From Escherichia coli (GTDB taxonomy: Bacteria > Pseudomonadota > Gammaproteobacteria > Enterobacterales > Enterobacteriaceae), in the NCBI RefSeq assembly GCF_030384885.1, contig NZ_CP128613.1: a DNA stretch of 64,000 nt. One strand, given 5' to 3'. The notes below the pieces were generated by a model. It saw only the letters and a list, made by a program, of their open reading frames with translations, was not told where the DNA came from and made no database searches. A program made the translations under genes and the position numbers. Shown one piece after another: positions 10,211 to 62,643 of this stretch; position 1 is the stretch's first letter; each line of letters opens with the position of its first letter.

Positions 10211-10474
10211 ATGATCGATCTGAAGAACCAGGAACGGGAGATTATCAATTTAATGTTCAGCCAGGGTATATCCTGGCTAACCGCCGTGCGTATCAGGCAT
10301 AAACTATCACTTGCTGAAGTTAGTAAAATGTTGGGTATCTCGATTAATTCTCTAAAACAAATCGAAAAGACGGAACGGCTTAGTTCAAACATCAAAAACA
10401 AAATGGCAGGAATTTATGGTTGTCTGCCAGAGTTGCTGATATGCCCTTACTGGATGACGGCTGAACATAAATGA
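10211..10474 (+). CDS. Small XRE-type HTH protein, possibly a remnant of or replacement for yjjJ
   Basis: 87-aa ORF with an RBS-like GGAAGGAAAT before the ATG and a helix-turn-helix (LSLAEVSKMLGISINSLKQIEK). It sits where K-12 has the roughly 1.3-kb HipA-like gene yjjJ; the lplA–deoD gap here is only about 455 bp. Confidence 0.4.
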   Translation: MIDLKNQEREIINLMFSQGISWLTAVRIRHKLSLAEVSKMLGISINSLKQIEKTERLSSNIKNKMAGIYGCLPELLICPYWMTAEHK

Positions 10475-20669: not shown

Positions 20670-21061
20670 CGATTTATTCCTGTATGTTTGCTCGTAATTT
20701 GAGCCTGGCAACACGAGGTTGCATTGCTGAATAGGGAGAGACTTCACCCTCTACAGAAGTCAATGGTCTCCATCACAAAATCGATGGGTGATGAATAACG
20801 ACCATTACAGCCTCTGAATCAGTTATTAATATCGGTAGAATGACAATCGACGGCTTTAGATACTGATATCTACGCATTGAACGGTATTTAACGCCGTCAG
20901 AAATGTCATTACTTTGTTAAATATAGATCACAATTTTGAAACCGCTCGGGATATCAGCGAAAACATAAGCAAAAGTGAATGTTTTAAGAACATTCCGTAA
21001 GCGGCTAATAAGGAAGGGAAATTGACAGGGCGCAGCGGCTACCGCGCCCTGGAGGCAAGAA

Positions 21062-22651
21062 TTAATGCTCGCGAGTCTGGTGGAACTGAACGTCCGGATA
21101 ACGTTCCTGCGCCAGGCGCAGGTTGACCATGCTGGTAGCGATGTAAGCGAGGTTATCGCCGCCATCAAGCGCCAGTTGGCTTTCGTTCTTACGCTTGAAC
21201 TCTTCGAATTTCTTCGCGTCCGCACATTCTACCCAGCGTGCAGTGGCAACGTTGACTGACTCATACACTGCTTCAACGTTGTATTCGCTCTTCAGGCGCG
21301 CTACCACCACATCAAACTGCAGCACACCAACCGCACCAACGATCAGGTCGTTGTTGGAGATCGGACGGAACACCTGCACCGCCCCCTCTTCGGAAAGCTG
21401 TACCAGCCCTTTGAGCAGCTGTTTTTGCTTCAGCGGATCTTTCAGGCGGATACGACGGAACAGTTCCGGCGCAAAGTTCGGGATACCGGTGAACTTCATC
21501 ATCTCACCCTGGGTAAAGGTGTCGCCGATCTGAATAGTGCCGTGGTTGTGCAGACCAAGGATGTCGCCCGGATACGCTTCTTCAACATGCGAACGGTCGC
21601 CCGCCATAAAGGTCAGCGCGTCGGAGATCACCACATCTTTCGCGGTGCGCACCTGGCGCAGCTTCATACCTTTTTCATATTTACCAGATACCACACGCAT
21701 AAACGCCACGCGGTCGCGGTGTTTCGGGTCCATGTTGGCCTGAATTTTAAATACGAAGCCGGTAAATTTATCTTCGCTCGCCTCTACGATACGGGTATCA
21801 GTCTGACGCGGCATCGGCGCAGGTGCCCACTCTACCAGGCCATCCAGCATATGATCGACGCCGAAGTTACCCAGCGCAGTACCAAAGAACACTGGAGTGA
21901 TTTCGCCCGCAAGGAACAATTCTTTGTCGAACTCGTTAGACGCGCCTTTCACCAGTTCCAGTTCGTCACGCAGCTGCTGTGCCAGATCTTCACCAACCGC
22001 AGCATCGAGATCCGGATTATTCAGCCCTTTAACAATGCGGACTTCCTGAATGGTGTGGCCTTTACCGCTCTGATAGAGATAGGTTTCGTCTTTATAAAGG
22101 TGGTAAACACCTTTAAACAGCTTGCCGCAGCCAATCGGCCAGGTGATCGGCGCACAGCCGATTTTCAGCTCGTTCTCAACTTCATCGAGCAGCTCCATCG
22201 GATCGCGGATATCACGGTCAAGTTTGTTCATAAAGGTGAGGATCGGCGTATCGCGCAGACGGGTAACTTCCATCAGCTTACGGGTACGATCTTCAACACC
22301 TTTTGCGGCGTCGATAACCATCAGGCAGCAGTCCACCGCCGTCAGGGTACGATAGGTATCTTCCGAGAAGTCTTCGTGCCCGGGGGTGTCGAGCAGGTTA
22401 ACCAGGCAGTCGTGATACGGAAACTGCATCACAGACGTGGTAATGGAGATCCCACGCTGCTTTTCCATCTCCATCCAGTCCGACTTAGCGTGCTGGTTGG
22501 AACCACGGCCTTTTACTGTACCGGCGGTCTGAATGGCCTGTCCGAACAGCAGCACCTTCTCGGTGATGGTCGTTTTACCGGCGTCCGGGTGAGAAATAAT
22601 GGCAAAAGTGCGGCGCTTCGCCACCTCTTGCAAATAAGGAGACAACGTCAT
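21062..22651 (-). CDS. prfC: Peptide chain release factor 3 (GTPase)
   Basis: 529 aa from [28 protein letters not shown] (G1 motif), DTPGH. Confidence 0.95.
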
Positions 22652-22741
22652 AATTCTTTCTTCTTGAGTAAGCGGCATCGCGCCGCGCTTGTTGAAAACG
22701 AAAAATTGCGGCTATTTTACCCATCAATGGGGGGGAGGCAA

Positions 22742-25585: not shown

Positions 25586-25696
25586 GGACATTTTTCCAGC
25601 AATTACACCTCCGTCGATAATTAACTATTGACGAAAAGCTGAAAACCACTAGAATGCGCCTCCGTGGTAGCAATTCTTTTTAAGAATTGATGGTAT

Positions 25697-25783
25697 GCGA
25701 AGGTGGCGGAATTGGTAGACGCGCTAGCTTCAGGTGTTAGTGTCCTTACGGACGTGGGGGTTCAAGTCCCCCCCCTCGCACCA
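25697..25783 (+). tRNA. leuQ: tRNA-Leu (CAG), copy 1
   Basis: 87-nt sequence GCGAAGGTGGCGGAATTGGTAGACGCGCTAGCTTCAGGTG...CGCACCA: long variable arm, CAG anticodon, encoded CCA. Confidence 0.93.
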
Positions 25784-25811
25784 AAAACCACGTTGATATT
25801 GCTCGCACTGG

Positions 25812-25898
25812 GCGAAGGTGGCGGAATTGGTAGACGCGCTAGCTTCAGGTGTTAGTGTTCTTACGGACGTGGGGGTTCAAGTCCCCCCCCTCGCACCA
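25812..25898 (+). tRNA. leuP: tRNA-Leu (CAG), copy 2, with one substitution in the variable arm
   Basis: Identical to copies 1 and 3 except GTGTTC in place of GTGTCC (C to T) in the variable-arm stem. Confidence 0.93.
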
Positions 25899-25931
25899 AA
25901 CGAGGCGATATCAAAAAAGTAAGATGACTGT

Positions 25932-26018
25932 GCGAAGGTGGCGGAATTGGTAGACGCGCTAGCTTCAGGTGTTAGTGTCCTTACGGACGTGGGGGTTCAA
26001 GTCCCCCCCCTCGCACCA
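25932..26018 (+). tRNA. leuV: tRNA-Leu (CAG), copy 3
   Basis: Identical to copy 1. Confidence 0.93.
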
Positions 26019-26330: not shown

Positions 26331-26433
26331 ATATGATAATTTTTATCATTTGCAAGCCAGAGAAATCCCTTGCTATCGGGTAAACCTATCGCTAGGATTA
26401 GCAATCATTATCATTTAGATTACTATCCCGATT

Positions 26434-27222
26434 ATGGCCTATCGTTCCGCACCGCTCTATGAAGATGTTATCTGGCGAACGCATCTCCAGCCGCAGGATG
26501 CTGGACTTGCAGAAGCAGTACGGTCGACGATCGCAGAAAATCGTGAACATTTGCTGGAGTTTATCCGCCTGGATGAACCCGCCCCATTCAGTGCCCTGAC
26601 GCTGGCGCAATGGTCATCACCGAATGCGTTAAGTTCTCTGTTAGCTGTTTATTCCGATCATATCTACCGCAATCAACCAACGATGATCCGCGAGAATAAG
26701 CCGCTGATCTCCCTGTGGGCGCAATGGTACATCGGCCTGATGGTGCCGCCATTAATGCTGGCCCTGTTAACGCAGGAAAAAGCATTAGATGTGTCGCCGG
26801 AACATTTCCACGTTGAGTTTCACGAAACCGGACGCGCCGCCTGTTTCTGGGTCGATGTGTATGAAGATAAAAACGCAACACCACATTCACCGCAGCAGCG
26901 AATGGAAACGTTAATTAGCAAGGCGCTTGTTCCGGTTGTGCAAGCATTAGAAGCGACTGGAGAAATTAACGGTAAACTTATCTGGAGTAATACCGGTTAT
27001 TTGATCAACTGGTACCTCACTGAGATGAAGCAGCTGCTCGGCGAGGCGACGGTTGAATCGCTGCGCCATGCCCTCTTTTTTGAGAAAACGCTCACTACCG
27101 GTGAAGATAATCCACTCTGGCGTACCGTGGTGCTGCGCGACGGCCTGCTGGTGCGCCGCACTTGCTGCCAGCGTTATCGCTTGCCGGATGTGCAGCAATG
27201 TGGTGACTGTACGCTGAAATAG
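26434..27222 (+). CDS. fhuF: Ferric-siderophore reductase FhuF (2Fe-2S)
   Basis: 262-aa ORF ending with the C-terminal Cys cluster CCQRYRLPDVQQCGDC. Confidence 0.92.
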   Translation: MAYRSAPLYEDVIWRTHLQPQDAGLAEAVRSTIAENREHLLEFIRLDEPAPFSALTLAQWSSPNALSSLLAVYSDHIYRNQPTMIRENKPLISLWAQWYIGLMVPPLMLALLTQEKALDVSPEHFHVEFHETGRAACFWVDVYEDKNATPHSPQQRMETLISKALVPVVQALEATGEINGKLIWSNTGYLINWYLTEMKQLLGEATVESLRHALFFEKTLTTGEDNPLWRTVVLRDGLLVRRTCCQRYRLPDVQQCGDCTLK

Positions 27223-27260
27223 AAAAATTTGCCGGGGAAGTAAACCCGGCATTAAGCGTA

Positions 27261-27938
27261 TTAATAGGGGTGCAACACGTTACTTGCTTCGCAATGACGC
27301 ATACATAACAGAATGTCCGCGGCCTCCAACAACCCTGCATCAGAACTGACGCCCAGTTTCGACATTACATTAAATTTATGCGCGCGGATCGTTTTGATAT
27401 TGCGTTTAAGCTGCTCGGCAATTTGTGTCATTGAGTAGCCACGCGACATAAAGCGCAATATTTCTCTCTCCGTCGGGCTTAGCGTCCGGCTTTGGTTAAT
27501 GTACCACTGATTGTTCAATCGGTCGGTCGCCTGACGCACACCATTTAATGACAAAAAGAGTTCTTGATGAAAAATCTCCAGCGTCGACGCTTTACTTAAT
27601 ACACCGTCCAGCGGTGATGGCGACAATGAACCAATCAGCCGAGCTTCAATATCATCATCCGCAATAACTAAACGTCGGGTACGCGGAAACTTAATCGCCA
27701 GTTCAGTCAGGCAAGATAATCCCTCTCTGCGTTTACTTCTCATGGCAGAAAAAGAAAAAATGACCGCCGCAAATGAGATCCGCGACATGGCATCCTGAAA
27801 TGACTCCTGACTGGTATAGATATGGAGCTTATAAGGGTTACCCGCAAATTTTCTGAATAAACTCTCAATACCGATACTGCTCATGACGCATTTTTCTATG
27901 AGTGCGACATTTCTCTTCTTAATTCGGCTGTGTTCCAT
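27261..27938 (-). CDS. bglJ: LuxR-family transcriptional regulator BglJ
   Basis: 225-aa ORF with C-terminal LuxR-type HTH; overlaps yjjQ. Confidence 0.88.
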
Positions 27939-28621
27939 TCTGCGGCATCTCCATAAACAGAAGGCAAGTTAAGTTCTCTTGCACCCTGCGCGCTATTTAT
28001 CCATGCATACATTTCAGCGTTGCTGTGAATTGCCAGTCGACGCATCGCACTGTTTTTTTGGGCGCTGATAGTTTTATTACTTTTCTTAAGCAATGAAGCT
28101 ATCTGGTTGATGCCCCATCCTTTACCTAATAGCCGCAGTACTTTGCGCTCTGAAAGAGTGAGAATAACGGAGCGATAGCTAAAATCATGCGTTTCAGTCA
28201 TTGCCGGAGAGGTCAGCATGGCACTGATACGCTCTGCGTGCGTATTGCCAGAACGCACGGTCTTGACCAGATTCTCAATGGGTTCAACATCAGACAATAA
28301 TGTCGCCGTAGGGCACATGAGCAGTTCTACCGCCTGGGAATACCAGGAGCGTGACACCATGAAAACCCAGTGAATTTCCCGATATTGTGAGATTAAAGAA
28401 TAATAATGCTCACAAACAGAACGAGGATCTTCACTTTCACCGGCTAAATCTGCAATAACTAATCCGGAACGACGTAATTGTAATAAGGTAAGGTCCTCCG
28501 CAGAGGCGCTGGATATTATTTCATATTCAGGGAAGTGAGTCCTCATGACCTCTTTTAACCCTGCTTGCATAACAGGTATTTTACTGATAACAATTCCATT
28601 TTTGCAGCATCCTGGCAACAT
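27896..28621 (-). CDS. yjjQ: LuxR-family transcriptional regulator YjjQ
   Basis: 241-aa ORF with C-terminal LuxR-type HTH; upstream of and overlapping bglJ. Confidence 0.88.
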
Positions 28622-29241
28622 ATTTCCTCCACATCCACTGTCTAAAAATCATGATGGTCTATTCAGGATATTCATTCCTTAAATGTTTCCAGCAAATTAA
28701 TAGATTAAGCGAATAAATTATCCTTTGCATTCACTTTCATATCAGCATACTCCTGCTGCACAATAACTCCACTGCATGTGTCAGAAGGTTAGCATCAAAT
28801 GATAACCTGGTGAAATAGCCTGGAGACATTTAAAATATCTACATTAAGTTGTTAGAAATACTTAATGAAAAACAGAATTCTCATTCATTTAATTTATAAT
28901 TAAAAAATATTTCTTCTCGCAAAATAAAAAATCACACAATCAATATTTATTCAATAAAATCTGATAGTTTTATCTTTTGTAAAGCCTAAAAAAGCACTCA
29001 GTTATCGATAATCCCGATTCGTAAAAACCAGACCATACATTCATTATGTCGATAATATTCACGTTATAATTTATTTACAGCTTGAGATTATTCGTTTTTT
29101 ACCCTCCGAGCCTCTCCCGATAACCAGGATTAATCAGCGCAATTTTGATCTTAACCTGCCGCAAAACAACCGCGCTTCATGATACAAATGGATTCTCATA
29201 ATTTGAACAATACGCAGCGCGTCTATGACAAAGGGCGAGTT

Positions 29242-30476
<1,235 letters not shown>

Positions 30477-30583
30477 AATTGCCTCACTTAAAGCACGCGG
30501 ATGAGAGACAGCCTCCTCTCCTCCGTGTGTTACTATAAAAGTTATCTCCCTTCTCGTTCATCGTTCCATATTTGAGAAACAGT

Positions 30584-37378: not shown

Positions 37379-38740
37379 GTGGAAAAAGAAAATATCACCC
37401 TCGATCCGCGTTCTTCATTTACTCCATCTTCGTCGGCAGATATTCCCGTGCCACCAGATGGATTAGTTCAACGCAGTACCCGAATTAAACGCATTCAAAC
37501 CACCGCCATGTTGTTATTATTTTTTGCGGCGGTAATCAATTATCTCGACCGCAGTTCACTGTCGGTAGCAAATTTAACGATTCGTGAAGAATTGGGATTA
37601 AGTGCCACCGAAATCGGCGCTTTGCTCTCCGTGTTTTCACTCGCTTACGGGATTGCGCAACTTCCTTGCGGCCCACTATTGGATCGTAAAGGCCCGCGCC
37701 TGATGCTGGGACTGGGGATGTTCTTCTGGTCACTGTTCCAGGCAATGTCTGGCATGGTGCACAGCTTTACGCAGTTCGTGTTGGTGCGTATAGGTATGGG
37801 GATTGGTGAAGCGCCGATGAACCCATGCGGTGTAAAAGTCATTAACGACTGGTTCAACATCAAAGAGCGCGGACGCCCGATGGGCTTCTTCAACGCAGCT
37901 TCTACCATTGGCGTTGCCGTAAGCCCACCGATTCTGGCGGCGATGATGCTGGTGATGGGCTGGCGCGGGATGTTTATTACCATTGGTGTGTTGGGTATTT
38001 TTCTCGCCATCGGTTGGTATATGCTCTATCGCAACCGCGAGCACGTAGAACTGACTGCCGTTGAACAAGCCTATCTCAATGCCGGTAGCGTCAATGCCCG
38101 CCGTGATCCACTCAGTTTTGCTGAATGGCGCAGCCTGTTCCGTAACCGCACAATGTGGGGAATGATGCTCGGATTCAGTGGCATCAATTACACTGCGTGG
38201 CTGTATCTGGCCTGGCTTCCTGGTTACCTGCAAACAGCCTATAATCTGGATTTAAAAAGCACAGGATTGATGGCGGCTATCCCTTTCCTGTTTGGGGCTG
38301 CCGGGATGCTGGTCAACGGTTACGTTACCGACTGGCTGGTCAAAGGGGGAATGGCTCCGATTAAAAGCCGTAAGATCTGCATTATTGCCGGGATGTTCTG
38401 TTCTGCCGCCTTTACGCTGGTCGTACCGCAAGCGACAACATCCATGACGGCGGTTCTGCTGATTGGCATGGCACTGTTCTGCATTCACTTTGCTGGAACA
38501 TCCTGCTGGGGATTGATCCATGTCGCTGTCGCTTCTCGCATGACTGCATCGGTGGGCAGTATCCAGAACTTTGCCAGCTTCATCTGCGCTTCTTTCGCGC
38601 CGATCATTACTGGTTTTATTGTCGATACCACCCACTCATTCCGTCTGGCGCTAATCATCTGCGGTTGCGTCACCGCGGCGGGTGCACTGGCATACATCTT
38701 CCTGGTTCGTCAGCCGATCAACGACCCACGTAAAGATTAA
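37379..38740 (+). CDS. lgoT: MFS L-galactonate:H+ symporter
   Basis: 453-aa, 12-TM MFS transporter; apparent GTG start. Confidence 0.88.
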   Translation: MEKENITLDPRSSFTPSSSADIPVPPDGLVQRSTRIKRIQTTAMLLLFFAAVINYLDRSSLSVANLTIREELGLSATEIGALLSVFSLAYGIAQLPCGPLLDRKGPRLMLGLGMFFWSLFQAMSGMVHSFTQFVLVRIGMGIGEAPMNPCGVKVINDWFNIKERGRPMGFFNAASTIGVAVSPPILAAMMLVMGWRGMFITIGVLGIFLAIGWYMLYRNREHVELTAVEQAYLNAGSVNARRDPLSFAEWRSLFRNRTMWGMMLGFSGINYTAWLYLAWLPGYLQTAYNLDLKSTGLMAAIPFLFGAAGMLVNGYVTDWLVKGGMAPIKSRKICIIAGMFCSAAFTLVVPQATTSMTAVLLIGMALFCIHFAGTSCWGLIHVAVASRMTASVGSIQNFASFICASFAPIITGFIVDTTHSFRLALIICGCVTAAGALAYIFLVRQPINDPRKD

Positions 38741-38787: not shown

Positions 38788-40443
38788 TTAAAACGTTTCC
38801 CAGTTCTCTCCGCTATCTGCCACGGCCATTTTACGCGGCGCAGCTGGCGTCACGGTTTTTACCACAGCCGATGTTTCACGCTGCTGTTGCTGAATCCGGA
38901 ACACTGCCACAGCTTCGGTCAGGCGACTGGCCTGCTCTTCCAGCGCGGCGGCGGCAGCGGCAGATTCTTCCACCAGCGCAGCGTTCTGTTGAGTTACCCG
39001 GTCCATCTCAGCAACCGCTAAGCCAACCTGATCGATACCACGGCTCTGCTCATCAGAAGCCGAAGCAATTTCGCCCATAATGTCCGTCACGCGGGTCACA
39101 GCGCTGACAATCTCTGCCATGGTTTCCCCGGCGCTTTCGACCAGCGTAGAGCCAACATCCACTTTGCCCACCGAGTCTTCAATCAGGCTTTTAATTTCGC
39201 GAGCCGCCTGAGCGCTACGCTGGGCCAGATTACGCACTTCTCCCGCAACCACCGCAAAACCGCGCCCTTGCTCACCCGCACGCGCTGCTTCAACCGCCGC
39301 GTTCAAAGCCAGAATATTGGTCTGGAAGGCAATGCCGTCAATTACGCTGATAATATCGGCGATTTTCTGCGAGCTGGTGGAGATATCGCGCATGGTCTGC
39401 ACCACGTTATCCACCACTTTGCCGCCACGTTGCGCCGTTTCGGAAGCACTTAACGCCAGGTGGCTGGCCTGACGCGCATTTTCGGCGTTCTGCTTCACCG
39501 TTGCGGTCAGTTGCTCCATGCTGGCTGCCGTCTCTTCCAGCGAAGCGGCCTGTTGCTCGGTGCGCGAAGAAAGATCGTTATTGCCGGTGGCGATTTCGCT
39601 GGCACCGCTATAGATAGCATTGGCCCCGTTGCGCACATCACCGACGGTACGCATCAGCTCTCCCTGCATATGGCGCAAACTCTCTGCCAGTTGCCCCATC
39701 TCATTAGAACCATCCACCTCAATCGGTTTCACCAGATCGCCACCTGCAATATGACGAATGCTGTCAATCAGGCGATTCATTGGCGCTACCAACGAGGCTT
39801 TAATACCGAACCAGACGGCGAAGATGACTGCCAGTACGACGATCATCACGCCCACCAGAATCCACATCGCCTGGCTGTAGGAGGCATTGTTATCGCTGAC
39901 AGCGATATCATAGAGCCGATCGTTTTGCTCCATGTAAGCCACATACTGCTTCTCGAAACCGTCCTGATATCCCTGAGTCGGCTGATCAAAGAATTCGTTG
40001 ATTTTGCCTGCACCTAACAGTTGGATCAGTTCCGCCAGCGCATTGTGATAAATATCGTAATTACGTTTGATCTCTGCCGCTGCGGCGGTGCTCTGACGCG
40101 GGTCACGCGGCAATGCTTCGTAATCCGCCCAGTTTTTTTCCGCCTGTTTCAGCGAAATACTGGCACTCTGCATCAGCTCGGCAACGGTTGAACCGCTACC
40201 AATATTGTTCTGATCCATCATGTAGCGGATACCTGCGCGGTTGAGGGTGTTACGCGTCTGCAACAACGCGACCCAGCTGCCATTCAGCGTGGATTGCTGT
40301 TGGCGAATGGTTTGTAAAACAGTGAAATTTTCTTTGTCATTCTTTAAGGCATTAAAGAACAGACCGCCTGATGTCAGTTGTAAAAGGCCAAAAACGGCCA
40401 AAACCAGCAGTAAGCTGGTCACGATCTTGATACGTTTTAACAT
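38788..40443 (-). CDS. tsr: Serine chemoreceptor Tsr (methyl-accepting chemotaxis protein I)
   Basis: 551 aa from [22 protein letters not shown]...; HAMP and methyl-accepting domains; C-terminal NWETF pentapeptide. Confidence 0.95.
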
Positions 40444-40582
40444 GGTTTCTCTTTCCACTAGACAGATACACTGGTTGTCGGCCTGGTGGTGGAAAACTTT
40501 ATGCTGTGGAAAAGCGTCGGCACTGCTTTTGTTGCAGCAAACTTGCGTTTTTTGTGAGGGTCACACTCTATAGCGGCAGTTT

Positions 40583-41488
40583 ATGGTACAAAGTATCAAT
40601 CTTCTTCGAACCAGTGATACTCCTATGGCTTATAGCATCGATATCATCTCCTGCATTACCGAACGATTTATGGCGTTAACAGCCACTGAAAAGCGTATCG
40701 CACAATTTATTCTTGATGATGTCCCCGCCGCGGTGGAACTGCCAATTGCTGAGCTGGCACGGTTAACGCAAACCAGTCAGGCGTCGGTGACGCGTTTTGC
40801 CCGTGCTCTGGGGTGTAAAGATGTCCGCGAGCTGAAAGTCAAACTGGCGCAGTCACTGGCTATCGGGCAGCGGTTTATTCTCGATGTACCGGATCTTGAC
40901 GGTGTTCAGGGGATCTACGAAGCGATTATTAGCGTGCTGGAAACGCATCGTCGTTCGCTGGATATGAATGCCATCAGCCAGGCGGTAAGCTGGTTAAGTC
41001 AGGCGCGGCAAATTCTTGCATTGGGAACTGGCGGCGGTTCCACCATCTGTTCACAGGAGATTCAGTACCGTTTATTCCGTCTGGGGCTACCTGTGGTTAG
41101 TCAGAATGATGCCCTGATGATGAGAATGATGTGCTCGGCAGTGATGCCGCAGGATGTGGTGATTGTGCTGTCGCTGGGCGGTTATACACCGGAAATCATC
41201 GAAAGTGCGGCAATCGCCCGTCAGTATGGCGCGCGTGTTATTGCCATTACGCCAGCACAAACACCGCTGGCGGAACAGGTGGATCTGGTATTGCCGTTAC
41301 TGGTTCAGGAAAGTGATTACATCTTTAAGCCCACCCCTTCCCGCTACGCGGTGTTAGCCATGGTCGATGTACTGGCAACAGAACTGGCAATGGCAAATAA
41401 AGCGCAGGCGAAAGATCGCCTGCGGCGGATAAAACTGGTGTTAGACAGCCACCGTGGGGGCGCTAACCGCCAGCCACTTGGCGATTAG
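40583..41488 (+). CDS. RpiR/MurR-family transcriptional regulator (HTH plus SIS sugar-phosphate-binding domain)
   Basis: N-terminal HTH (EKRIAQFILDD...ELARLTQTSQASVTRFARALG) and C-terminal SIS-like region; true start may be the Met at 40625. Absent between tsr and btsT in my recollection of K-12. Confidence 0.75.
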   Translation: MVQSINLLRTSDTPMAYSIDIISCITERFMALTATEKRIAQFILDDVPAAVELPIAELARLTQTSQASVTRFARALGCKDVRELKVKLAQSLAIGQRFILDVPDLDGVQGIYEAIISVLETHRRSLDMNAISQAVSWLSQARQILALGTGGGSTICSQEIQYRLFRLGLPVVSQNDALMMRMMCSAVMPQDVVIVLSLGGYTPEIIESAAIARQYGARVIAITPAQTPLAEQVDLVLPLLVQESDYIFKPTPSRYAVLAMVDVLATELAMANKAQAKDRLRRIKLVLDSHRGGANRQPLGD

Positions 41489-54100: not shown

Positions 54101-54630
54101 AATCGCTGTACGGTGATTACGACACGCCGCAGGATTTCCTCGAAGCCTTTGACTCGCTGGTGCAACGTTCCCCGAACGCGCAACCGGCATTGCAGGCAGT
54201 TATTAATCGCCCGCGCGATCTCACCCGTAAAGGGCTGGTCGAGCTACAGGAGTGGTTTGACCGCCAGCACTTTGAGGAATCTTCCCTGCGCAAAGCATGG
54301 AAAGAGACGCGCAATGAAGATATCGCCGCCCGGCTGATTGGTCATATTCGCCGCGCTGCGGTGGGCGATGCGCTGAAACCGTTTGAGGAACGTGTCGATC
54401 ACGCGCTGACGCGTATCAAGGGCGAAAACGACTGGAGCAGCGAGCAATTAAGCTGGCTCGATCGTTTAGCGCAGGCGCTGAAAGAGAAAGTGGTGCTCGA
54501 CGACGATGTCTTCAAAACCGGCAATTTCCACCGTCGCGGCGGGAAGGCGATGCTGCAAAGAACCTTTGACGATAATCTCGACAGCCTGCTCGATAAATTC
54601 AGCGATTATATCTGGGACGAACTGGCCTGA
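51118..54630 (+). CDS. hsdR: Type I restriction enzyme R subunit HsdR
   Basis: 1170 aa from MMNKSNFEFLKG...; SF2 helicase motifs (LLAMATGTGKT Walker A, DEAH-like VVDEAHRG). Confidence 0.95.
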   Translation: MMNKSNFEFLKGVNDFTYAIACAAENNYPDDPNTTLIKMRMFGEATAKHLGLLLNIPPCENQHDLLRELGKIAFVDDNILSVFHKLRRIGNQAVHEYHNDLDDAQMCLRLGFRLAVWYYRLVTKDYDFPVPVFVLPERGENLYHQEVLTLKQQLEQQAREKAQTQAEVEAQQQKLVALNGYIAILEGKQQETEAQTLARLAALEAQLAEKNAELAKQTEQERKAYHKEITDQAIKRTLNLSEEESRFLIDAQLRKAGWQADSKTLRFSKGARPEPGVNKAIAEWPTGKDETGNQGFADYVLFVGLKPIAVVEAKRKNIDVPGKLNESYRYSKCFDNGFLRETLLEHYSPDEVHEAVPEYETSWQDTSGQQRFKIPFCYSTNGREYRAAMKTKSGIWYRDVRDTRNMSKALPEWHRPEELLEMLGSEPQKQNQWFADNPGMSELGLRYYQEDAVRAVEKAIVKGQQEILLAMATGTGKTRTAIAMMFRLIQSQRFKRILFLVDRRSLGEQALGAFEDTRINGDTFNSIFDIKGLTDKFPEDSTKIHVATVQSLVKRTLQSDEPMPVARYDCIVVDEAHRGYILDKEQTEGELQFRSQLDYVSAYRRILDHFDAVKIALTATPALHTVQIFGEPVYRYTYRTAVIDGFLIDQDPPIQITTRNAQEGVYLAKGEQVERISPQGEVINDTLEDDQDFEVADFNRGLVIPAFNRAVCNELTNYLDPTGLQKTLVFCVTNAHADMVVEELRAAFKKKYPQLEHDAIIKITGDADKDARKVQTMITRFNKERLPNIVVTVDLLTTGVDIPSICNIVFLRKVRSRILYEQMKGRATRLCPEVNKTSFKIFDCVDIYSTLESVDTMRPVVVRPKVELQTLVNEITDSETYKITEADGRSFAEHSHEQLVAKLQRIIGLATFNRDRSETIDKQVRRLDELCQDAAGVNFNGFASRLREKGPHWSAEVFNKLPGFIARLEKLKTDINNLNDAPIFLDIDDEVVSVKSLYGDYDTPQDFLEAFDSLVQRSPNAQPALQAVINRPRDLTRKGLVELQEWFDRQHFEESSLRKAWKETRNEDIAARLIGHIRRAAVGDALKPFEERVDHALTRIKGENDWSSEQLSWLDRLAQALKEKVVLDDDVFKTGNFHRRGGKAMLQRTFDDNLDSLLDKFSDYIWDELA

Positions 54631-54830: not shown

Positions 54831-56420
54831 ATGAACAATAACGATCTGGTCGCGAAGCTGTGGAAGCTGTGCGACAACCTGCGCGATGGCGGCGTTTCCT
54901 ATCAAAACTACGTCAATGAACTCGCCTCGCTGCTGTTTTTGAAAATGTGTAAAGAAACCGGACAGGAAGCGGAATACCTGCCGGAAGGCTACCGCTGGGA
55001 TGACCTGAAATCCCGTATCGGCCAGGAGCAGTTGCAGTTCTACCGTAACCTGCTGGTACATCTGGGCGCCGACAATCAAAAGCTGGTGCAGGCAGTGTTC
55101 CAGAACGTCAACACCACCATTACCCAGCCGAAACAGTTGACCGAGCTGGTCAGCAATATGGATTCACTGGACTGGTACAACGGCGCGCACGGTAAGTCGC
55201 GCGATGACTTCGGCGATATGTACGAAGGGCTGTTGCAGAAGAACGCGAATGAAACCAAGTCTGGCGCGGGCCAGTACTTCACCCCGCGTCCGCTGATTAA
55301 AACCATTATTCATCTGCTGAAACCGCAGCCGCGTGAAGTGGTGCAGGACCCGGCGGCAGGTACGGCGGGCTTTTTGATTGAAGCCGACCGCTATGTTAAG
55401 TCGCAAACTAATGATCTGGACGACCTTGATGGCGACACGCAGGATTTCCAGATCCACCGCGCGTTTATCGGCCTCGAACTGGTGCCCGGCACCCGTCGTC
55501 TGGCACTGATGAACTGCCTGCTGCACGATATTGAAGGCAACCTCGACCACGGCGGCGCAATCCGTCTGGGCAACACCCTGGGCAGCGACGGTGAAAACCT
55601 GCCGAAAGCGCATATTGTCGCCACTAACCCGCCGTTTGGCAGCGCCGCAGGCACCAACATTACCCGCACCTTTGTTCACCCGACCAGCAACAAACAGTTG
55701 TGCTTTATGCAGCATATTATCGAAACGCTGCATCCCGGCGGTCGTGCGGCGGTCGTGGTGCCGGATAACGTACTGTTTGAAGGCGGCAAAGGCACCGACA
55801 TCCGTCGTGACCTGATGGATAAGTGTCATCTGCACACCATTCTGCGTCTGCCGACCGGTATTTTTTACGCGCAGGGCGTGAAAACCAACGTGCTGTTCTT
55901 TACCAAAGGGACGGTGGCGAATCCGAATCAGGATAAGAACTGTACCGACGACGTGTGGGTGTACGACCTGCGTACCAATATGCCGAGCTTCGGCAAGCGC
56001 ACGCCGTTTACCGACGAGCATTTGCAGCCGTTTGAGCGCGTGTATGGCGAAGACCCGCACGGTTTAAGCCCGCGCACTGAAGGGGAATGGAGTTTTAACG
56101 CCGAAGAGACGGAAGTTGCCGACAGCGAAGAGAACAAAAACACCGATCAGCATCTGGCCACCAGCCGCTGGCGCAAGTTCAGCCGCGAGTGGATCCGCAC
56201 CGTGAAATCCGATTCGCTGGATATCTCCTGGCTGAAAGATAAAGACAGCATCGACGCCGACAGCCTGCCGGAGCCGGATGTGTTAGCGGCAGAAGCGATG
56301 GGTGAACTGGTACAGGCATTGGGTGAACTGGATGCGCTGATGCGTGAACTGGGGGCGAGCGATGAGGCGGATGCACAGCGTCAGTTGCTGGAAGAAGCGT
56401 TTGGTGGGGTGAAAGAATGA
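54831..56420 (+). CDS. hsdM: Type I R-M N6-adenine DNA methyltransferase subunit HsdM
   Basis: 529-aa ORF with NPPF catalytic motif (IVATNPPFGSAAG) and SAM-binding region. Confidence 0.95.
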   Translation: MNNNDLVAKLWKLCDNLRDGGVSYQNYVNELASLLFLKMCKETGQEAEYLPEGYRWDDLKSRIGQEQLQFYRNLLVHLGADNQKLVQAVFQNVNTTITQPKQLTELVSNMDSLDWYNGAHGKSRDDFGDMYEGLLQKNANETKSGAGQYFTPRPLIKTIIHLLKPQPREVVQDPAAGTAGFLIEADRYVKSQTNDLDDLDGDTQDFQIHRAFIGLELVPGTRRLALMNCLLHDIEGNLDHGGAIRLGNTLGSDGENLPKAHIVATNPPFGSAAGTNITRTFVHPTSNKQLCFMQHIIETLHPGGRAAVVVPDNVLFEGGKGTDIRRDLMDKCHLHTILRLPTGIFYAQGVKTNVLFFTKGTVANPNQDKNCTDDVWVYDLRTNMPSFGKRTPFTDEHLQPFERVYGEDPHGLSPRTEGEWSFNAEETEVADSEENKNTDQHLATSRWRKFSREWIRTVKSDSLDISWLKDKDSIDADSLPEPDVLAAEAMGELVQALGELDALMRELGASDEADAQRQLLEEAFGGVKE

Positions 56421-57805
56421 GTTTCAACTCAACATCAAAAGAATTAATTGAGCAAAATATCAATGGGTTACTTTCAAGCCATGAGAGCTGGTTACGTATT
56501 CCAATGGATTCCGTAGCAAACATCACAAACGGTTTTGCTTTTAAGTCGGCAGAATTTAATAATCGTAAAGATGGTGTACCATTAATTAGAATTCGTGATG
56601 TTCTTAAAGGTAGTACATCGACTTATTACTCGGGGCAAATTCCTGAGGGATATTGGGTATATCCCGAAGACTTAATCGTGGGAATGGATGGTGATTTTAA
56701 TACAACTATATGGCGCTCGGAGCCCGCTCTGTTAAATCAACGAGTATGTAAAATCGAAGTTCAGGAAGACAAATACAATAAAAGATTTTTCTATCATGCC
56801 TTACCAGGATATTTATCCGCAATCAATGCAAATACGTCCTCGGTTACTGTAAAGCATCTTTCTTCCAGGACACTTCAAGATACCCTACTTCCGTTGCCAC
56901 CACTTGCCGAACAAAAAATCATCGCTGAAAAACTCGATACGCTGCTGGCGCAGGTAAACAGCACCAAAGCACGTCTTGAGCAAATCCCACAAAACCTGAA
57001 ACGTTTTCGTCAGGCGGTGCTTCATGTTGCAGTGAGCGGGAAATTAACTGAAAAATGGCGATTAGAAAATGCAACTTTAGAAAACTCATACGAATGGAAG
57101 GTGCAATCTTTATCTGATCTTGGTGTTTTAGCTCGAGGTAAATCTAAACATCGACCTAGAAACGATCCTCGCCTATTTGGGGATAAGTATCCATTTATTC
57201 AAACAGGTGAAGTTGCCAATAGTTCAGGAAGAATTAAAAGAGCAAATAAATTTTATAGTGAGTTTGGTTTATCACAAAGCAAGCTATTTCCAAAAGATAC
57301 CTTATGTATAACTATTGCTGCCAACATTGCGGATACAGCCATATTAGAGATTGAGGCATGTTTCCCGGACAGTGTCGTTGGTTTCATTTCTGATAAAGAT
57401 AAATCTCATGTATCCTTTGTGAAGTATCTAATTGATGTTAACAAAGATAATCTTGAAGCATTTGCACCAGCTACAGCACAAAAAAATATTAACTTAAAGG
57501 TTTTAAACGAACTTAAACTTCCTATTCCTGATATTAAAGAACAAGCCGAAATCGTTCGCCGCGTCGAGCAACTCTTCGCCTACGCCGACACCATAGAAAA
57601 ACAGGTCAACAACGCCCTGGCCCGCGTCAACAACCTGACGCAATCCATCCTGGCAAAAGCGTTCCGTGGTGAACTCACCGCCCAGTGGCGGGCCGAAAAC
57701 CCGGATTTGATCAGCGGAGAAAACAGCGCCGCCGCGTTGCTGGAAAAAATCAAAGCTGAACGCGCAGCCAGCGGGGGTAAAAAAGCCTCACGTAAAAAAT
57801 CCTGA
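56417..57805 (+). CDS. hsdS: Type I R-M specificity subunit HsdS (type IA family) with non-K-12 target-recognition domains
   Basis: 462-aa ORF overlapping the hsdM stop. Central (LPPLAEQKIIAEKLDTLLAQV...) and C-terminal (EQAEIVRRVEQLFAYADTIEKQVNNALARVNNLTQSILAKAFRGELTAQWR...) conserved regions are type IA-like; both variable domains differ from my recollection of the K-12 protein. Confidence 0.85.
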   Translation: MSFNSTSKELIEQNINGLLSSHESWLRIPMDSVANITNGFAFKSAEFNNRKDGVPLIRIRDVLKGSTSTYYSGQIPEGYWVYPEDLIVGMDGDFNTTIWRSEPALLNQRVCKIEVQEDKYNKRFFYHALPGYLSAINANTSSVTVKHLSSRTLQDTLLPLPPLAEQKIIAEKLDTLLAQVNSTKARLEQIPQNLKRFRQAVLHVAVSGKLTEKWRLENATLENSYEWKVQSLSDLGVLARGKSKHRPRNDPRLFGDKYPFIQTGEVANSSGRIKRANKFYSEFGLSQSKLFPKDTLCITIAANIADTAILEIEACFPDSVVGFISDKDKSHVSFVKYLIDVNKDNLEAFAPATAQKNINLKVLNELKLPIPDIKEQAEIVRRVEQLFAYADTIEKQVNNALARVNNLTQSILAKAFRGELTAQWRAENPDLISGENSAAALLEKIKAERAASGGKKASRKKS

Positions 57806-57817
57806 ACATTATTTTCT

Positions 57818-57842
57818 GGCGCACCTTTCCGGTGCGCTTTTT
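57818..57842 (+). terminator. Rho-independent terminator after hsdS
   Basis: GGCGCACC-TTTCC-GGTGCGC followed by TTTTT. Confidence 0.7.
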
Positions 57843-57937
57843 ATTATTTCACGCCAATCATAACCCACATAAATATATTTAAATCATTCCAGAAATTGCC
57901 CATTTTATTCTATTTTTAGCTGGACTTTCCCCATATT

Positions 57938-57957
57938 TACTGATGATATATCCAGGT
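57938..57957. promoter_or_regulatory. LexA (SOS) box upstream of symE
   Basis: TACTGATGATATATCCAGGT has the CTG-N10-CAG form of the LexA consensus (TACTGTATATATATACAGTA), about 80 bp upstream of the symE ATG. Confidence 0.5.
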
Positions 57958-57961
57958 ATTT

Positions 57962-58038
57962 AGCGCGGTGCGGATGTGCGCCAACACACCCGCACCGCTA
58001 ATCACAATCCCTATTTCTAAGGAATAGTAATCATGACT
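57962..58038 (-). ncRNA. symR: SymR cis-antisense sRNA (approximate bounds)
   Basis: On the minus strand a TAGAAT -10-like hexamer lies just inside the symE 5' end with a predicted start near 58038; a perfect 9-bp inverted repeat (GCGGTGCGG...CCGCACCGC, 57963-57997) sits at the expected 3' end. Consistent with the known ~77-nt SymR overlapping the symE start. Confidence 0.4.
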
Positions 58039-58374
58039 GACACGCATTCTATTGCACAACCGTTCGAAGCAGAAGTCTCCCCGGCAAATAACCGTCAATT
58101 AACCGTGAGTTATGCGAGTCGCTACCCGGATTACAGCCGTATTCCCGCCATCACCCTGAAAGGTCAGTGGCTGGAAGCCGCCGGTTTTGCCACCGGCACG
58201 GCGGTAGATGTCAAAGTGATGGAAGGCTGTATTGTCCTCACCGCCCAACCACCCGCCCCCGAAGAGAGCGAACTGATGCAGTCACTGCGCCAGGTGTGCA
58301 AACTGTCAGCGCGTAAACAAAAGCAGGTGAAGGAGTTTATTGGGGTGATTGCCGGTAAACAGAAAGTCGCGTAA
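58033..58374 (+). CDS. symE: SOS-induced type I toxin SymE (AbrB/SpoVT-fold, promotes RNA cleavage)
   Basis: 113-aa [37 protein letters not shown]...; located between hsdS and mcrB as in K-12. Confidence 0.88.
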
Positions 58375-58535
58375 CAGCGTTTACTCCCGGTTAACCACCG
58401 GGAGCCTTCCACTGACTCAATAGAAACTTTCCCCCTCAGTAAATATTTACCAGTCTGATTTTGCAGTAAAAATCTATTGTTTCAGTACGTTGCGAAAGCG
58501 ATAATAGAGGCTTAGCAATGAGGAAGGCATATCTT

Positions 58536-59915
58536 ATGGAATCTATTCAACCCTGGATTGAAAAATTTATTAAGCAAGCACAGCAACAACGTTCGCAATC
58601 CACTAAAGATTATCCAACGTCTTACCGTAACCTGCGAGTAAAATTGAGTTTCGGTTATGGTAATTTTACGTCTATTCCCTGGTTTGCATTTCTTGGAGAA
58701 GGTCAGGAAGCTTCTAACGGTATATATCCCGTTATTCTCTATTATAAAGATTTTGATGAGTTGGTTTTGGCTTATGGTATAAGCGACACGAATGAACCAC
58801 ATGCCCAATGGCAGTTCTCTTCAGACATACCTAAAACAATCGCAGAGTATTTCCAGGCAACTTCAGGTGTATATCCTAAAAAATACGGACAGTCCTATTA
58901 CGCCTGTTCCCAAAAAGTCTCACAGGGTCTTGATTATACCCGGTTTGCCTCCATGCTGGACAACATAATCAACGACTATAAATTAATATTTAATTCTGGC
59001 AAGAGTGTTATTCCACCTATGTCAAAAACTGAATCATACTGTCTGGAAGATGCGTTAAATGATTTGTTTATCCCTGAAACCACGATAGAGACGATACTCA
59101 AACGATTAACCATCAAAAAAAATATTATCCTCCAGGGGCCGCCCGGCGTTGGAAAAACCTTTGTTGCACGCCGTCTGGCTTACTTGCTGACAGGGGAAAA
59201 GGCTCCGCAACGCGTCAATATGGTTCAGTTCCATCAATCTTATAGCTATGAGGATTTTATACAGGGCTATCGTCCGAATGGTGTCGGCTTCCGACGTAAA
59301 GACGGTATATTTTACAATTTTTGTCAGCAAGCTAAAGAGCAGCCAGAGAAAAAGTATGTTTTTATTATAGATGAAATCAATCGTGCCAATCTCAGTAAAG
59401 TATTTGGCGAAGTGATGATGTTAATGGAACATGATAAACGAGGTGAAAACTGGTCTGTTCCCTTAACCTACTCCGAAAACGATGAAGAACGATTCTATGT
59501 TCCGGAGAATGTTTATATTATCGGTTTAATGAATACTGCCGATCGCTCTCTGGCCGTTGTTGATTATGCCCTGCGCAGACGATTTTCTTTCATAGATATT
59601 GAGCCAGGTTTTGATACGCCACAGTTCCGGAATTTTTTACTGAATAAAAAAGCAGAACCTTCATTTGTTGAATCTTTATGCCAAACAATGAACGAGTTAA
59701 ACCAGGAAATCAGCAAAGAGGCCACTATCCTTGGGAAAGGATTCCGCATTGGGCATAGTTACTTCTGCTCCGGGTTGGAAGATGGCACATCTCCTGATAC
59801 GCAATGGCTTAAGGAAATTGTGATGACGGATATCGCCCCTTTACTCGAAGAATATTTCTTTGATGATCCCTATAAACAACAGATATGGACCGACAAATTA
59901 TTAGGTGACTCATAG
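58536..59915 (+). CDS. mcrB: McrB, GTP-dependent 5-methylcytosine-specific restriction subunit (AAA+)
   Basis: 459 aa from MESIQPWIEKFIKQAQQQRS...; Walker A GPPGVGKT; AT-rich coding sequence. Confidence 0.93.
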   Translation: MESIQPWIEKFIKQAQQQRSQSTKDYPTSYRNLRVKLSFGYGNFTSIPWFAFLGEGQEASNGIYPVILYYKDFDELVLAYGISDTNEPHAQWQFSSDIPKTIAEYFQATSGVYPKKYGQSYYACSQKVSQGLDYTRFASMLDNIINDYKLIFNSGKSVIPPMSKTESYCLEDALNDLFIPETTIETILKRLTIKKNIILQGPPGVGKTFVARRLAYLLTGEKAPQRVNMVQFHQSYSYEDFIQGYRPNGVGFRRKDGIFYNFCQQAKEQPEKKYVFIIDEINRANLSKVFGEVMMLMEHDKRGENWSVPLTYSENDEERFYVPENVYIIGLMNTADRSLAVVDYALRRRFSFIDIEPGFDTPQFRNFLLNKKAEPSFVESLCQTMNELNQEISKEATILGKGFRIGHSYFCSGLEDGTSPDTQWLKEIVMTDIAPLLEEYFFDDPYKQQIWTDKLLGDS

Positions 59916-60961
59916 TGGAACAGCCCGTGATACCTGTCCGTAATATCTATTACATGCTTACCTATGCATGGGGTTATTTACAGGAAATTAAGCAGGCCGA
60001 CCTTGAAGCCATTCCCGGTAACAATCTTCTTGATATCCTGGGGTATGTATTAAATAAAGGGGTTTTACAGCTTTCACGCCGAGGGCTTGAGCTTGATTAC
60101 AATCCTAATACAGAAATCATTCCTGGCATCAAAGGGCGAATAGAGTTTGCTAAAACAATACGCGGCTTCCATCTTAATCATGGGAAAACCGTCAGTACGT
60201 TTGATATGCTTAATGAAGACACGCTGGCTAACCGAATTATAAAAAGCACATTAGCCATGTTAATTAAGCATGAAAAGTTAAACTCAGCCATCAGAGATGA
60301 AGCTCGTTCACTTTATAGAAAATTACCGGGCATTAGCACTCTTCATTTAACTCCACAGCATTTCAGCTATCTGAATGGCGGAAAAAATACGCGTTATTAT
60401 AAATTCGTTATAAGTGTCTGCAAGTTCATCGTCAATAATTCTATTCCAGGTCAAAACAAAGGACACTACCGTTTCTATGATTTTGAAAGAAACGAAAAAG
60501 AGATGTCATTACTTTATCAAAAGTTTCTTTATGAATTTTGCCGCCGTGAATTAACGTCTGCAAACACAACCCGCTCTTATTTAAAATGGGATGCATCGAG
60601 CATATCGGATCAGTCACTTAATTTGTTACCTCGAATGGAAACTGACATCACCATTCGCTCATCAGAAAAAATACTTATCGTTGACGCCAAATACTATAAG
60701 AGCATTTTTTCACGACGAATGGGCTCAGAAAAATTTCATTCTCAAAATCTTTATCAACTGATGAATTACTTATGGTCGTTAAAGCCTGAAAATGGCGAAA
60801 ACATAGGGGGCTTATTAATATACCCCCACGTAGATACCGCAGTGAAACATCGTTATAAAATTAATGGCTTCGATATTGGCTTGTGTACCGTCAATTTAGG
60901 TCAGGAATGGCCGTGTATACATCAAGAATTACTCGACATTTTCGGTGAATATCTCAAATAA
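59915..60961 (+). CDS. mcrC: McrC, nuclease subunit of McrBC
   Basis: 348-aa ORF starting at a GTG that overlaps the mcrB stop; PD-(D/E)xK-like C-terminal region (...IVDAKYYK...). Confidence 0.92.
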   Translation: MEQPVIPVRNIYYMLTYAWGYLQEIKQADLEAIPGNNLLDILGYVLNKGVLQLSRRGLELDYNPNTEIIPGIKGRIEFAKTIRGFHLNHGKTVSTFDMLNEDTLANRIIKSTLAMLIKHEKLNSAIRDEARSLYRKLPGISTLHLTPQHFSYLNGGKNTRYYKFVISVCKFIVNNSIPGQNKGHYRFYDFERNEKEMSLLYQKFLYEFCRRELTSANTTRSYLKWDASSISDQSLNLLPRMETDITIRSSEKILIVDAKYYKSIFSRRMGSEKFHSQNLYQLMNYLWSLKPENGENIGGLLIYPHVDTAVKHRYKINGFDIGLCTVNLGQEWPCIHQELLDIFGEYLK

Positions 60962-61017
60962 GCGGTAAGTTTTATAGAAAATACCGCTCCCGACACCACA
61001 TCGGGAGCGGCTCATCA

Positions 61018-61353
61018 TCAGGAGGCGATCACCTCCACCAGCACATCCGTTGCCCAGCTCTCTTCACTGTTGACCACATTCCCTTCCTGACAAGCTTGAT
61101 CCATTTTGACTAACTGGAAAGAAACGTCATCGCGGAAATCAAAGTAATGCCATTGCGATGAAAAGTTGATGCGCCAGTAGCCCATCCCCTGATCGAAGCG
61201 GATCTTCAATACCTGACCATCCTCAAAAGTCACCGTCAGTTTACGATGGTGAGGGATATCGCGCGGCGAGTCGAACACCGTCAGTTCTACCGGCCTGCCC
61301 AGCGCAGCAGCAAACCACTGATCAGCGAAATCCTGAAAATCCGCTATGCTCAT
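61018..61353 (-). CDS. Hypothetical protein, downstream member of a coupled gene pair
   Basis: 111-aa ORF whose ATG overlaps the stop of the upstream 277-aa ORF (ATGA overlap); no motif I can recognise. Confidence 0.4.
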
Positions 61354-62183
61354 CCAGTCATGGAAAGGCCGGTTAGCAGTCCATTCAAAAAATGCGTTCC
61401 TGTTTCATCATCTAACGGTATTGGAAACTCGCTTCGCCAGGTAGGGTGAACCTTATCAAGCTGTTGTACTGGTTCTTTGTGATTTATTAGGTTGTGAGTA
61501 AGTACTAAGGAATTGAGGTTATCAGCCATATGACTGATAAGTTCTACAGAGGTATCTTCGCTAAAAACAGTAGGCAGCGCTGATTTTTCTATGACAGCTC
61601 TTGCCAGCGAAAGGGCTGAAAAACCTGACTGCTTTGCTTGCTCATATTGTCCAAGGATCCTGGAGAAAACAGCCAGAAAGCGACTGTCTGATTCTTTGAG
61701 TAGCCGGAAAGGTAAACCACCTTCACTGAATAATGTTCCGAGAAAATTGCGTCGTTCAGATTCATAAAATCGAATTGGGCGCAGCCAGTAATCTTCCATC
61801 CCTTTCGGTACGATAGTACCAAGCTCTGTGGCGGTGAATGAAATCCCTATTTTTTTATATATAGGGTCCCACGTCCATCCGCATTGCCGTTCATAATCCC
61901 TGCGGTACCACTCAGAGCAAAAAAGAACAAAACAGGCAGCAAAGTCCCTATTACATATATTAGATTGTGATTGACCGACTGCACGGAGTAGCTGCGTTAA
62001 TTGGGTATATTCATCATTGGTTGCATGATATTCATAAAGAGGACGGCCATCCGGTTGTCTCAACCCTCTAAGATTCACAAAGTTACTTAGCCAGGAAGTA
62101 CATTTTACCCATGAAATGTATTCTGATTGACCCAAAGCAAGCTCCTTAGAGATAAAAGATACAAAAACAAAACCCCACAACAT
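61350..62183 (-). CDS. Hypothetical protein, upstream member of a coupled gene pair (may correspond to part of the K-12 yjiV/yjiT pseudogene region)
   Basis: 277-aa ORF convergent with mcrC; weak RBS; preceded by a markedly AT-rich spacer of about 460 bp. Confidence 0.4.
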
Positions 62184-62643
62184 TTCTAATTTGAAAGAAA
62201 ACCTTTCAGAATATTGTATAGTTACTCAGGCGGCAACAACTATTTTTTCAGGTCGATACTATAAATCAATTTTAGATAAAAATGATATCAACCATCTATT
62301 AATCACAACTCATTTATCACCTGATTTTATAATTTCAAATGAAAATAAATCTCAAACAATCAAAAAGTATTCAGTAGCTGACATTTAACTTTCCAGGATA
62401 TAAAACAATTAGAGAAACTGCACAATAGCGAATAATGAGAGTTGTAAAGTCAGTCAAAAAACACAAGTAATCACTGTGCGTTTTTTGACCGTTATCGACA
62501 TGAGTTTAAAGAGGTTAGTGAAGAAGATATTCCTGTACACTCCATACCTATTGATGAATTGTCTCGGGAAAATTTTTATAACTTAATATAAAAACATAAA
62601 AACGTTTTATTATATATAAATCTATATCCCCCCTCACTCCACA

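Follow-up and report, generated by a model that had tools for sequence, protein, structure and literature searches.

The AT-rich divergent control region between yjjQ-bglJ and yjjP in Escherichia coli: conserved flanks and a fast-changing center

Genes and composition of the locus

The 64,000-nucleotide stretch of Escherichia coli DNA considered here (the window) includes two divergent transcription units separated by a gap of 620 bp, whose limits are given by the yjjQ open reading frame on one side and by the yjjP start of the RefSeq annotation on the other (Table 1). On one side lie the overlapping genes of two LuxR-type regulators, and on the other yjjP and yjjB, to which the K-12 annotation assigns a putative succinate exporter. 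The names yjjQ, yjjP and yjjB are those of RefSeq, with coordinates taken from NZ_CP027579.1 (strain 2013C-4282), 100% identical over the tested kilobase, and BglJ scores 382 bits against its NCBIfam equivalog. The genes named in the original prediction, which was made from the letters of the DNA, are thus the right ones, and the limits and length that it gave for the gap are exact to the base. A longer yjjP reading frame, open in E. coli from position 29179, was rejected because a 1-nt indel disrupts the extension in Escherichia sp. E1V33 and in E. albertii, and the annotated ATG therefore stands. BglJ acts together with RcsB to activate leuO, bgl and about 10 other loci, while YjjQ represses flhDC. 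The control region matters because it governs both of these regulators as well as the YjjPB transporter.

Table 1. Genes, parts of the gap and short elements at the yjjQ-bglJ/yjjP locus, in positions of the window
Feature	Positions	Strand	Basis and remarks
Divergent intergenic control region	28622..29241	.	ORFs, RefSeq, composition, K-12 orthology
yjjQ	27896-28621	-	ORF; LuxR-type regulator gene, in operon with bglJ
bglJ	27261-27938	-	LuxR-type regulator gene; overlaps yjjQ
yjjQ and bglJ operon	27261..28621	-	Left-hand target of the control region
yjjP	29242-30012	+	RefSeq start ATG at 29242; right-hand target of the control region
yjjB	30003-30476	+	Directly with yjjP in 29242..30476; RefSeq name
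yjjQ-proximal flank	28622..28877	-	Divergence: window/K-12 2.0%, K-12/O157 0.4%, between species ~16-21%
Hypervariable center (236 bp, GC 26.7%)	28878..29113	.	Divergence: window/K-12 20.5%, K-12/O157 7.3%, between species 43-48%
yjjP-proximal flank	29114..29241	+	Divergence: window/K-12 3.9%, K-12/O157 1.6%, between species ~15-20%
yjjQ Shine-Dalgarno GGAGG	28626..28630	-	4 nt before ATG; GGAG invariant and GGAGG near-invariant across compared genera
Proximal yjjQ promoter-like element, CTGATA-17-GATAAT	28717..28745	-	Scan match; putative; same hexamers as PMC3946193
Marbox GCATCAAATGATAAC	28792..28806	+	Occurs once in the window; identical to the H10407 MarA-site 15-mer
Distal promoter-like element, TTCTAA-17-TTTAAA	28829..28857	-	Putative; ~200 nt upstream of yjjQ ATG
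Conserved island in center, ATTCATT..GATAATATTCA	29039..29061	.	Candidate regulator site
Invariant 18-bp block TCAGCGCAATTTTGATCT	29134..29151	+	Invariant in Escherichia; candidate regulator site
Extended -10-like element TGaTACAAA (TGATACAAA)	29180..29188	+	Candidate yjjP promoter

The gap aligns collinearly with its K-12 ortholog (4602859-4603476, 618 bp). Of 5,426 complete E. coli genomes, 5,424 carry a single copy of the locus, and the gap is intact in about 99.5% of complete genomes. The arrangement extends across the family: among 80 species representatives of the Enterobacteriaceae that encode a YjjQ relative, 57 carry yjjP as its divergent neighbor, and the gap between the two has a median length of 443 bp and a GC content of 36.5%, as against 50.7% for the locus. 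The long, AT-rich divergent gap is not a chance feature, and the architecture is old. Further to the left, the site beside yjjG is a variable insertion point, occupied in several strains by a tyrosine-integrase island (~20870-22680, on the left), with prfC adjacent in the window, K-12 and Z142-3. The tRNA-Leu genes (~25690-26010) number three in tandem in the window and most strains, and one in the O157:H7 strain examined.

The description of the gap as unusually long, very AT-rich and non-coding is borne out by its composition. Its GC content is 32.9%, compared with 51.1% for the whole window, and a value as low occurs in only 0.5% of 620-bp segments; over 200 bp the minimum is 23.5%, at 28800-28999. 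The gap is also the longest genuine stretch of the window that lacks an ORF of at least 100 aa. A stretch at 62184-63526 that the ORF-gap script returned as ORF-free is an artefact, since RefSeq places there a helicase gene that continues past the window's end. The many A/T tracts of the original prediction do not exceed what base composition provides, with 14 tracts of at least 4 nt in the gap and 10.2 +/- 2.8 in shuffled sequences. A second zone of low GC content, at ~56000-64000 (30.6% GC in the poorest 620-bp segments), corresponds to the restriction "immigration control" region, which contains hsdM, hsdS, symE and mcrBC, followed by the large DEAD/DEAH helicase gene at the window's end.

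Three-part anatomy and conserved blocks

Alignment of nine E. coli strains with five other Escherichia representatives divides the gap into a hypervariable center and two flanks. Of the 74 differences between the window and K-12 in 1.1 kb, 51 fall within 256 bp at the center, and differences concentrate there for every strain pair compared. The window and K-12 centers are 79.5% identical, with 2 single-base indels, and the common E. coli types differ from one another by 7-8.5% over this part. The fourfold-degenerate sites of bglJ, yjjQ, yjjP and yjjB, which served as the reference, diverge by 11.1% between the window and K-12, by 1.9% between K-12 and O157, and by 32-43% between K-12 and other species. 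Measured against these values, the flanks change less than fourfold-degenerate sites do (p=4e-6 on the yjjQ side and p=0.014 on the yjjP side), and the center changes at roughly 1.4-3.8 times their rate within E. coli. The excess in the center is 1.8-fold for the window and K-12 (p=0.0016) and 3.8-fold for K-12 and O157 (p=0.001); it is not significant for K-12 and MS1718 (p=0.27), and in comparison with MOD1-EC7003, a near relative, the center changes at about 0.8-fold the fourfold-site rate. Relative to nine other nearby intergenic regions, pooled, the center is 3-6-fold faster, with p from 1e-4 to 3e-20. Differing genealogies along the locus could account for part of the excess.

What is kept in the center is its composition, not its sequence, the GC content lying at 27-35% in every Escherichia species. 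The window allele is the more AT-rich when set against that of K-12 (28.1% vs 32.7% GC over 28870-29125). Directional GC-to-AT mutation was considered for these two centers and rejected: the changes number 26 as against 14, and 29 of 49 are transitions, too weak a bias for hypermutation of the deamination type.

Promoters were assigned in this work by consensus matches and conservation. On the yjjQ side, the hexamers of the proximal promoter-like element are those predicted for yjjQ-bglJ from RNA polymerase SELEX (PMC3946193). Every Escherichia species compared keeps both CTGATA and GATAAT, and AAGGATAA is kept as well in most Citrobacter species and in Salmonella. Within Escherichia, no block of the yjjQ flank is better conserved than the distal promoter-like element, and by eye the pair T(T/G)CTAA-17-TTTAA(A/T), at 28857-28852 and 28834-28829, retains its 17-nt spacing in Citrobacter, Salmonella and Enterobacter cloacae. 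Between the proximal element and the gene, in the presumed yjjQ leader, lies a near-palindrome, AGGATATTCATTCCT (28665-28679), that is largely conserved in Escherichia and resembles the sites of LuxR-family regulators. The half-sites are wrongly spaced, by eye, for an RcsAB/RcsB box, and the near-palindrome may be bound by YjjQ itself or by another regulator.

Within the center, GATAATATTCA (29051-29061), part of the conserved island, is invariant in all Escherichia species compared. A Fur box at 29042-29060 would match, by eye, at 11-13 of 19 positions, which is unconvincing in DNA this rich in A and T. On the yjjP side the hexamer TTGATC (29145-29150), inside the invariant 18-bp block, is unchanged in 29 of 29 aligned sequences from many genera, and the pattern TGnTAnAA of the extended -10-like element (29180-29188) is likewise conserved across genera. 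TTGATC contains GATC (29147-29150), the recognition sequence of the Dam methylase. As an FNR site it was rejected by eye, its second half-site being absent. The block is possibly the LeuO site that is said to overlap the yjjP promoter.

The original prediction had also suggested that multiple promoters might be hidden in the gap. This is plausible to the extent that conserved promoter-like elements occur, two toward yjjQ and one toward yjjP; it does not extend to an excess of such sites, since a simple consensus scan of the gap found 4 sigma70 promoter-like sites where shuffled sequences hold 3.7 +/- 2.1. A promoter island was set aside for the same lack of excess, on a test that is approximate, the published definition being scored with a different program. 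The conserved blocks make up a short list that could guide site-directed work.

Probable H-NS silencing and alternative explanations

In K-12, H-NS reportedly binds the middle of the AT-rich stretch, away from the two divergent promoters, and LeuO is said to have sites in the center and over the yjjP promoter. The part reported as H-NS-bound corresponds to the hypervariable center. Passages of PMC5025477, PMC3950696 and PMC4264507 that cite Stratmann et al. 2008 describe yjjQ-bglJ and yjjP as repressed by H-NS in K-12, with LeuO as the antagonist, and describe LeuO as an activator of yjjQ-bglJ. Genomic SELEX flagged the spacer "HNS" and found it to bind RNA polymerase-sigma70 (PMC3946193), and ChIP-based tables list "H-NS binding TRUE" for both yjjP and the yjjQ-bglJ unit (PMC4720273 S2 Table). 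All binding evidence for the locus, MarA included, comes from K-12, SE11/SE15 or H10407; for H-NS, ChIP-based and SELEX datasets of other strains show the interval bound. Together with the published repression in K-12, the SELEX flag and the ChIP tables support the suggestion that this is an H-NS-silenced control region and that yjjQ-bglJ is H-NS-repressed.

The motif content of the gap does not significantly exceed what its richness in A and T would produce. With up to 2 mismatches allowed, the H-NS motif tCGwTwAATT has 9 matches in the gap and 5.3 +/- 2.4 in shuffled sequences (p=0.08), a density of 14.5 per kb compared with 3.3 per kb in the window. No perfect match occurs in the gap. The window's only perfect matches, at 10340-10349, 37571-37580 and 54590-54599, all lie outside it. 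Two TCGATAAT motifs specific to the window allele were considered as new H-NS sites and rejected, each having 2 mismatches and the overall enrichment not being significant. A further regulator is placed at the locus by MarA ChIP-seq in ETEC H10407, where gcatcaaatgataac, a site with strong in-vitro binding, lies between yjjP and yjjQ (PMC5684230); the marbox 15-mer is 30 bp from the reported ChIP peak in that strain.

The upstream region of yjjPB is also a repeated target of adaptive IS insertion when E. coli colonizes the mouse gut. Insertions in the gap are recurrent adaptive mutations there and were found in 57% of wild-type mouse populations (PMC4674774). Adaptive insertions have been placed at -111, -185 and -256 from the yjjP ATG, and in one insertion clone yjjP expression was raised about 2-fold under aerobic conditions (PMC5094792). 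These sites correspond to window positions ~29131, 29056 and 28985, either inside the center or between the AT-rich center and the yjjP promoter zone, and the IS1 at -111 leaves the TTGATC block and the extended -10-like element attached to yjjP. IS1 occurs naturally at the locus as well. Strain Z1323PEC0011 carries a copy between yjjQ and its promoters (~28640 equivalent), the annotation of its transposase gene running from 73 bp upstream of the yjjQ start codon, and in strain PS3Tanimalfeces2 an IS1-bounded deletion (~27500-29280 equivalent) takes out part of bglJ, yjjQ and the gap in their entirety, and the first yjjP codons.

We consider it highly probable that the region is the E. coli yjjQ-bglJ/yjjP divergent control region, silenced by H-NS and antagonized by LeuO. 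For K-12 the literature shows that H-NS silences both transcription units under laboratory conditions and that LeuO relieves the silencing. Comparative sequence suggests that the two flanks hold promoters, leaders and specific regulator sites under purifying selection, and that the 236-bp center may serve as an AT-rich loading platform for H-NS, its composition presumably maintained while the order of its bases changes at, or above, roughly the neutral rate. An IS1 at ~29131 would separate the yjjP promoter from this platform. The window would then carry a rare, deep-branching version of the locus, with a center 20% off that of K-12 and with flanks and YjjQ essentially unchanged.

A bolder reading, for which we see only a small chance, takes the AT-rich center to be a tunable silencer, in which composition alone is selected and the K-12-, O157/B2- and window-type alleles differ in H-NS threshold. 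Its targets may be the putative succinate exporter yjjPB, the YjjQ/BglJ regulators, or both. Were it true, drift by point mutation would do slowly what IS insertions do abruptly in gut adaptation, and the TTGATC block and the island at 29039-29061 would bind regulators new to the locus.

It is unlikely that diversifying or balancing selection acts on the center, with alleles that set different strengths of H-NS silencing suited to hosts or niches. The 1.8-fold and 3.8-fold excesses over fourfold sites speak for such selection, as do the repeated adaptive IS insertions in the mouse gut (PMC4674774, PMC5094792), the higher AT content of the window allele, and the division of the population into center classes relative to K-12 (2,387 genomes at >=95% identity, 3,021 in the 90-95% range and about 12 under 90%). 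The excess, however, is not significant for K-12 and MS1718 and turns into a deficit for K-12 and MOD1-EC7003, between species the center is simply saturated, and the rare allele comes as part of an entire rare haplotype. Moreover, published species-wide dS values of the flanking genes (0.04-0.11) are of the same order as the 7-8% divergence between common center types; neutral drift plus recombination in the flanks therefore suffices.

That the gap instead hides an independent gene, small RNA or small protein is very improbable, even though it is long enough to hold one. A search of both strands of 28300-29500 against Rfam gave no match with an E-value of 1 or less, there are 0 terminator-like sites in the gap, and the folding of the putative leaders is unremarkable (z-scores of -0.19 and +1.80), so the small RNAs that were suggested to lie here find no support. 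Four candidate small ORFs were found in the gap, and three of them are interrupted by stops in relatives. The fourth, of 30 codons (28737-28829, minus strand), is open in four Escherichia taxa: E. coli, E. whittamii, SCPM-O-B-8794 and E. albertii. It was rejected as a gene, being without a Shine-Dalgarno sequence and having its ATG inside the conserved promoter-like TTTAAATG element, with a product that is poorly conserved from one species to another and that E1V33 encodes in truncated form. The statement that no convincing ORF is present accordingly holds. Repeats amount to a single weak direct pair of 20 nt and a single inverted pair of 14 nt, and a mobile element, REP or repeat array was discarded on these grounds and on the single-copy status of the locus. 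The main value of the exercise is in this sense negative, in that it accounts for a long AT-rich gap in which nothing else appears to be hidden.

The window center is found at >=95% identity in only 9 of 5,426 complete E. coli genomes, the rest reaching <=82%. It differs by 24.5% from that of MOD1-EC7003 and by 44-49% from those of E1V33, SCPM-O-B-8794, E. whittamii and E. albertii. The carriers, though differing among themselves, share window-private variants throughout the 14 kb compared, and 11 kb away, at 40-41 kb, they once more come out as the window's nearest relatives. As a control for the distribution of identities, 40000-41000 is poor because it falls on an accessory-gene junction, where tsr adjoins a MurR/RpiR-family regulator gene; only 192 of 5,426 genomes cover at least 80% of this kilobase in one piece. 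The eight other genomes of the haplotype (Z142-3, 2017-02-2CC, MFDS1022581, MFDS1019527, N96, EC42405, 2020CK-00188 and R32_14_1F) come from several hosts, countries and continents.

The rare haplotype takes in the whole locus at ~26400-30500, with the 3' part of fhuF, bglJ, yjjQ, the gap, yjjP and yjjB. At fourfold sites the window differs from K-12, O157 and MS1718 by 9-16% in bglJ, yjjQ, yjjP and yjjB and by 19% in fhuF. Its divergence from common strains, about 10% in bglJ, yjjQ and yjjP and 19% in fhuF, amounts to about 1.6-2.5x the published species-average dS (bglJ, yjjP, yjjB and fhuF). One YjjQ protein, WP_000936635.1, is nevertheless shared by the window, the carrier strains, O157, MS1718 and 2012C-4221. 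Even among common strains fhuF (26434-27222) is unusually polymorphic, at 12-15% of fourfold sites between K-12, O157 and MS1718 vs 1-10% in neighboring genes, which fits its high published species-wide dS of 0.107.

A short import of the divergent center by recombination, from some other species or clade of Escherichia, is extremely improbable and was dropped as an explanation: the crowding of 51 of the 74 differences into 256 bp and the rarity of the allele would suit such an event, but the center is farther still from every other Escherichia representative compared, the carriers share private variants along 14 kb and not in the center alone, and the same concentration of differences appears in every strain pair. 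Since the carriers share variants over 14 kb and are again nearest 11 kb away, the rare center marks a rare, fairly deep E. coli haplotype and not a local import, and its fast rate of change magnifies the divergence of that haplotype.

Comparison with known systems

The closest known system is the K-12 yjjQ-bglJ/yjjP region (Stratmann, Madhusudan & Schnetz 2008, J Bacteriol 190:926), which is the same locus with the same genes in the same orientation and differs by 2 bp in length (620 vs 618 bp). The flanks are 96-98% identical to those of K-12, with no change in the marbox, in the Shine-Dalgarno sequence or in the predicted promoter hexamers, and YjjQ is the same protein in the window and in the five E. 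coli strains for which accessions were compared; the window center, by contrast, is 79.5% identical and has a GC content of ~27-28% as against 33%. Both the observation and its interpretation are already known from the K-12 literature, and the fast-changing center is an added detail.

There is genome-wide precedent for this detail, in that upstream intergenic regions bound by H-NS change faster (Higashi et al. 2016, PMC4720273). That study found raised diversity in H-NS-bound head-to-head intergenic regions relative to unbound ones, and the gap behaves alike. It took intergenic regions of 10-300 bp, and because those longer than 300 bp were excluded, the 618-bp region falls outside its diversity analysis; the yjjQ/yjjP gap resolves the excess to a center of 236 bp. 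A drifting center between constrained flanks is a local refinement and no new principle, and its merit is a clean picture, at a single locus, of an H-NS-silenced region that evolves with conserved promoter-proximal flanks and a center of which only the composition is kept.

The bgl upstream silencer and the leuO region offer the other obvious comparison. Like the gap, both have an AT-rich H-NS binding region apart from the promoter, repression that dominates in the laboratory, and expression that is raised by promoter-adjacent IS insertions; both are relieved by LeuO or BglJ-RcsB as well as by IS insertion, and relief by LeuO is common to the gap. MarA ChIP-seq sites occur both between leuL and leuO and between yjjP and yjjQ. 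Unlike bgl and leuO, the gap has one shared AT-rich center that serves two divergent units, and the yjjQ/yjjP locus is not known to have a downstream (intragenic) H-NS element. The mechanism is otherwise the textbook scheme of H-NS silencing and LeuO anti-silencing that is common to bgl and leuO.
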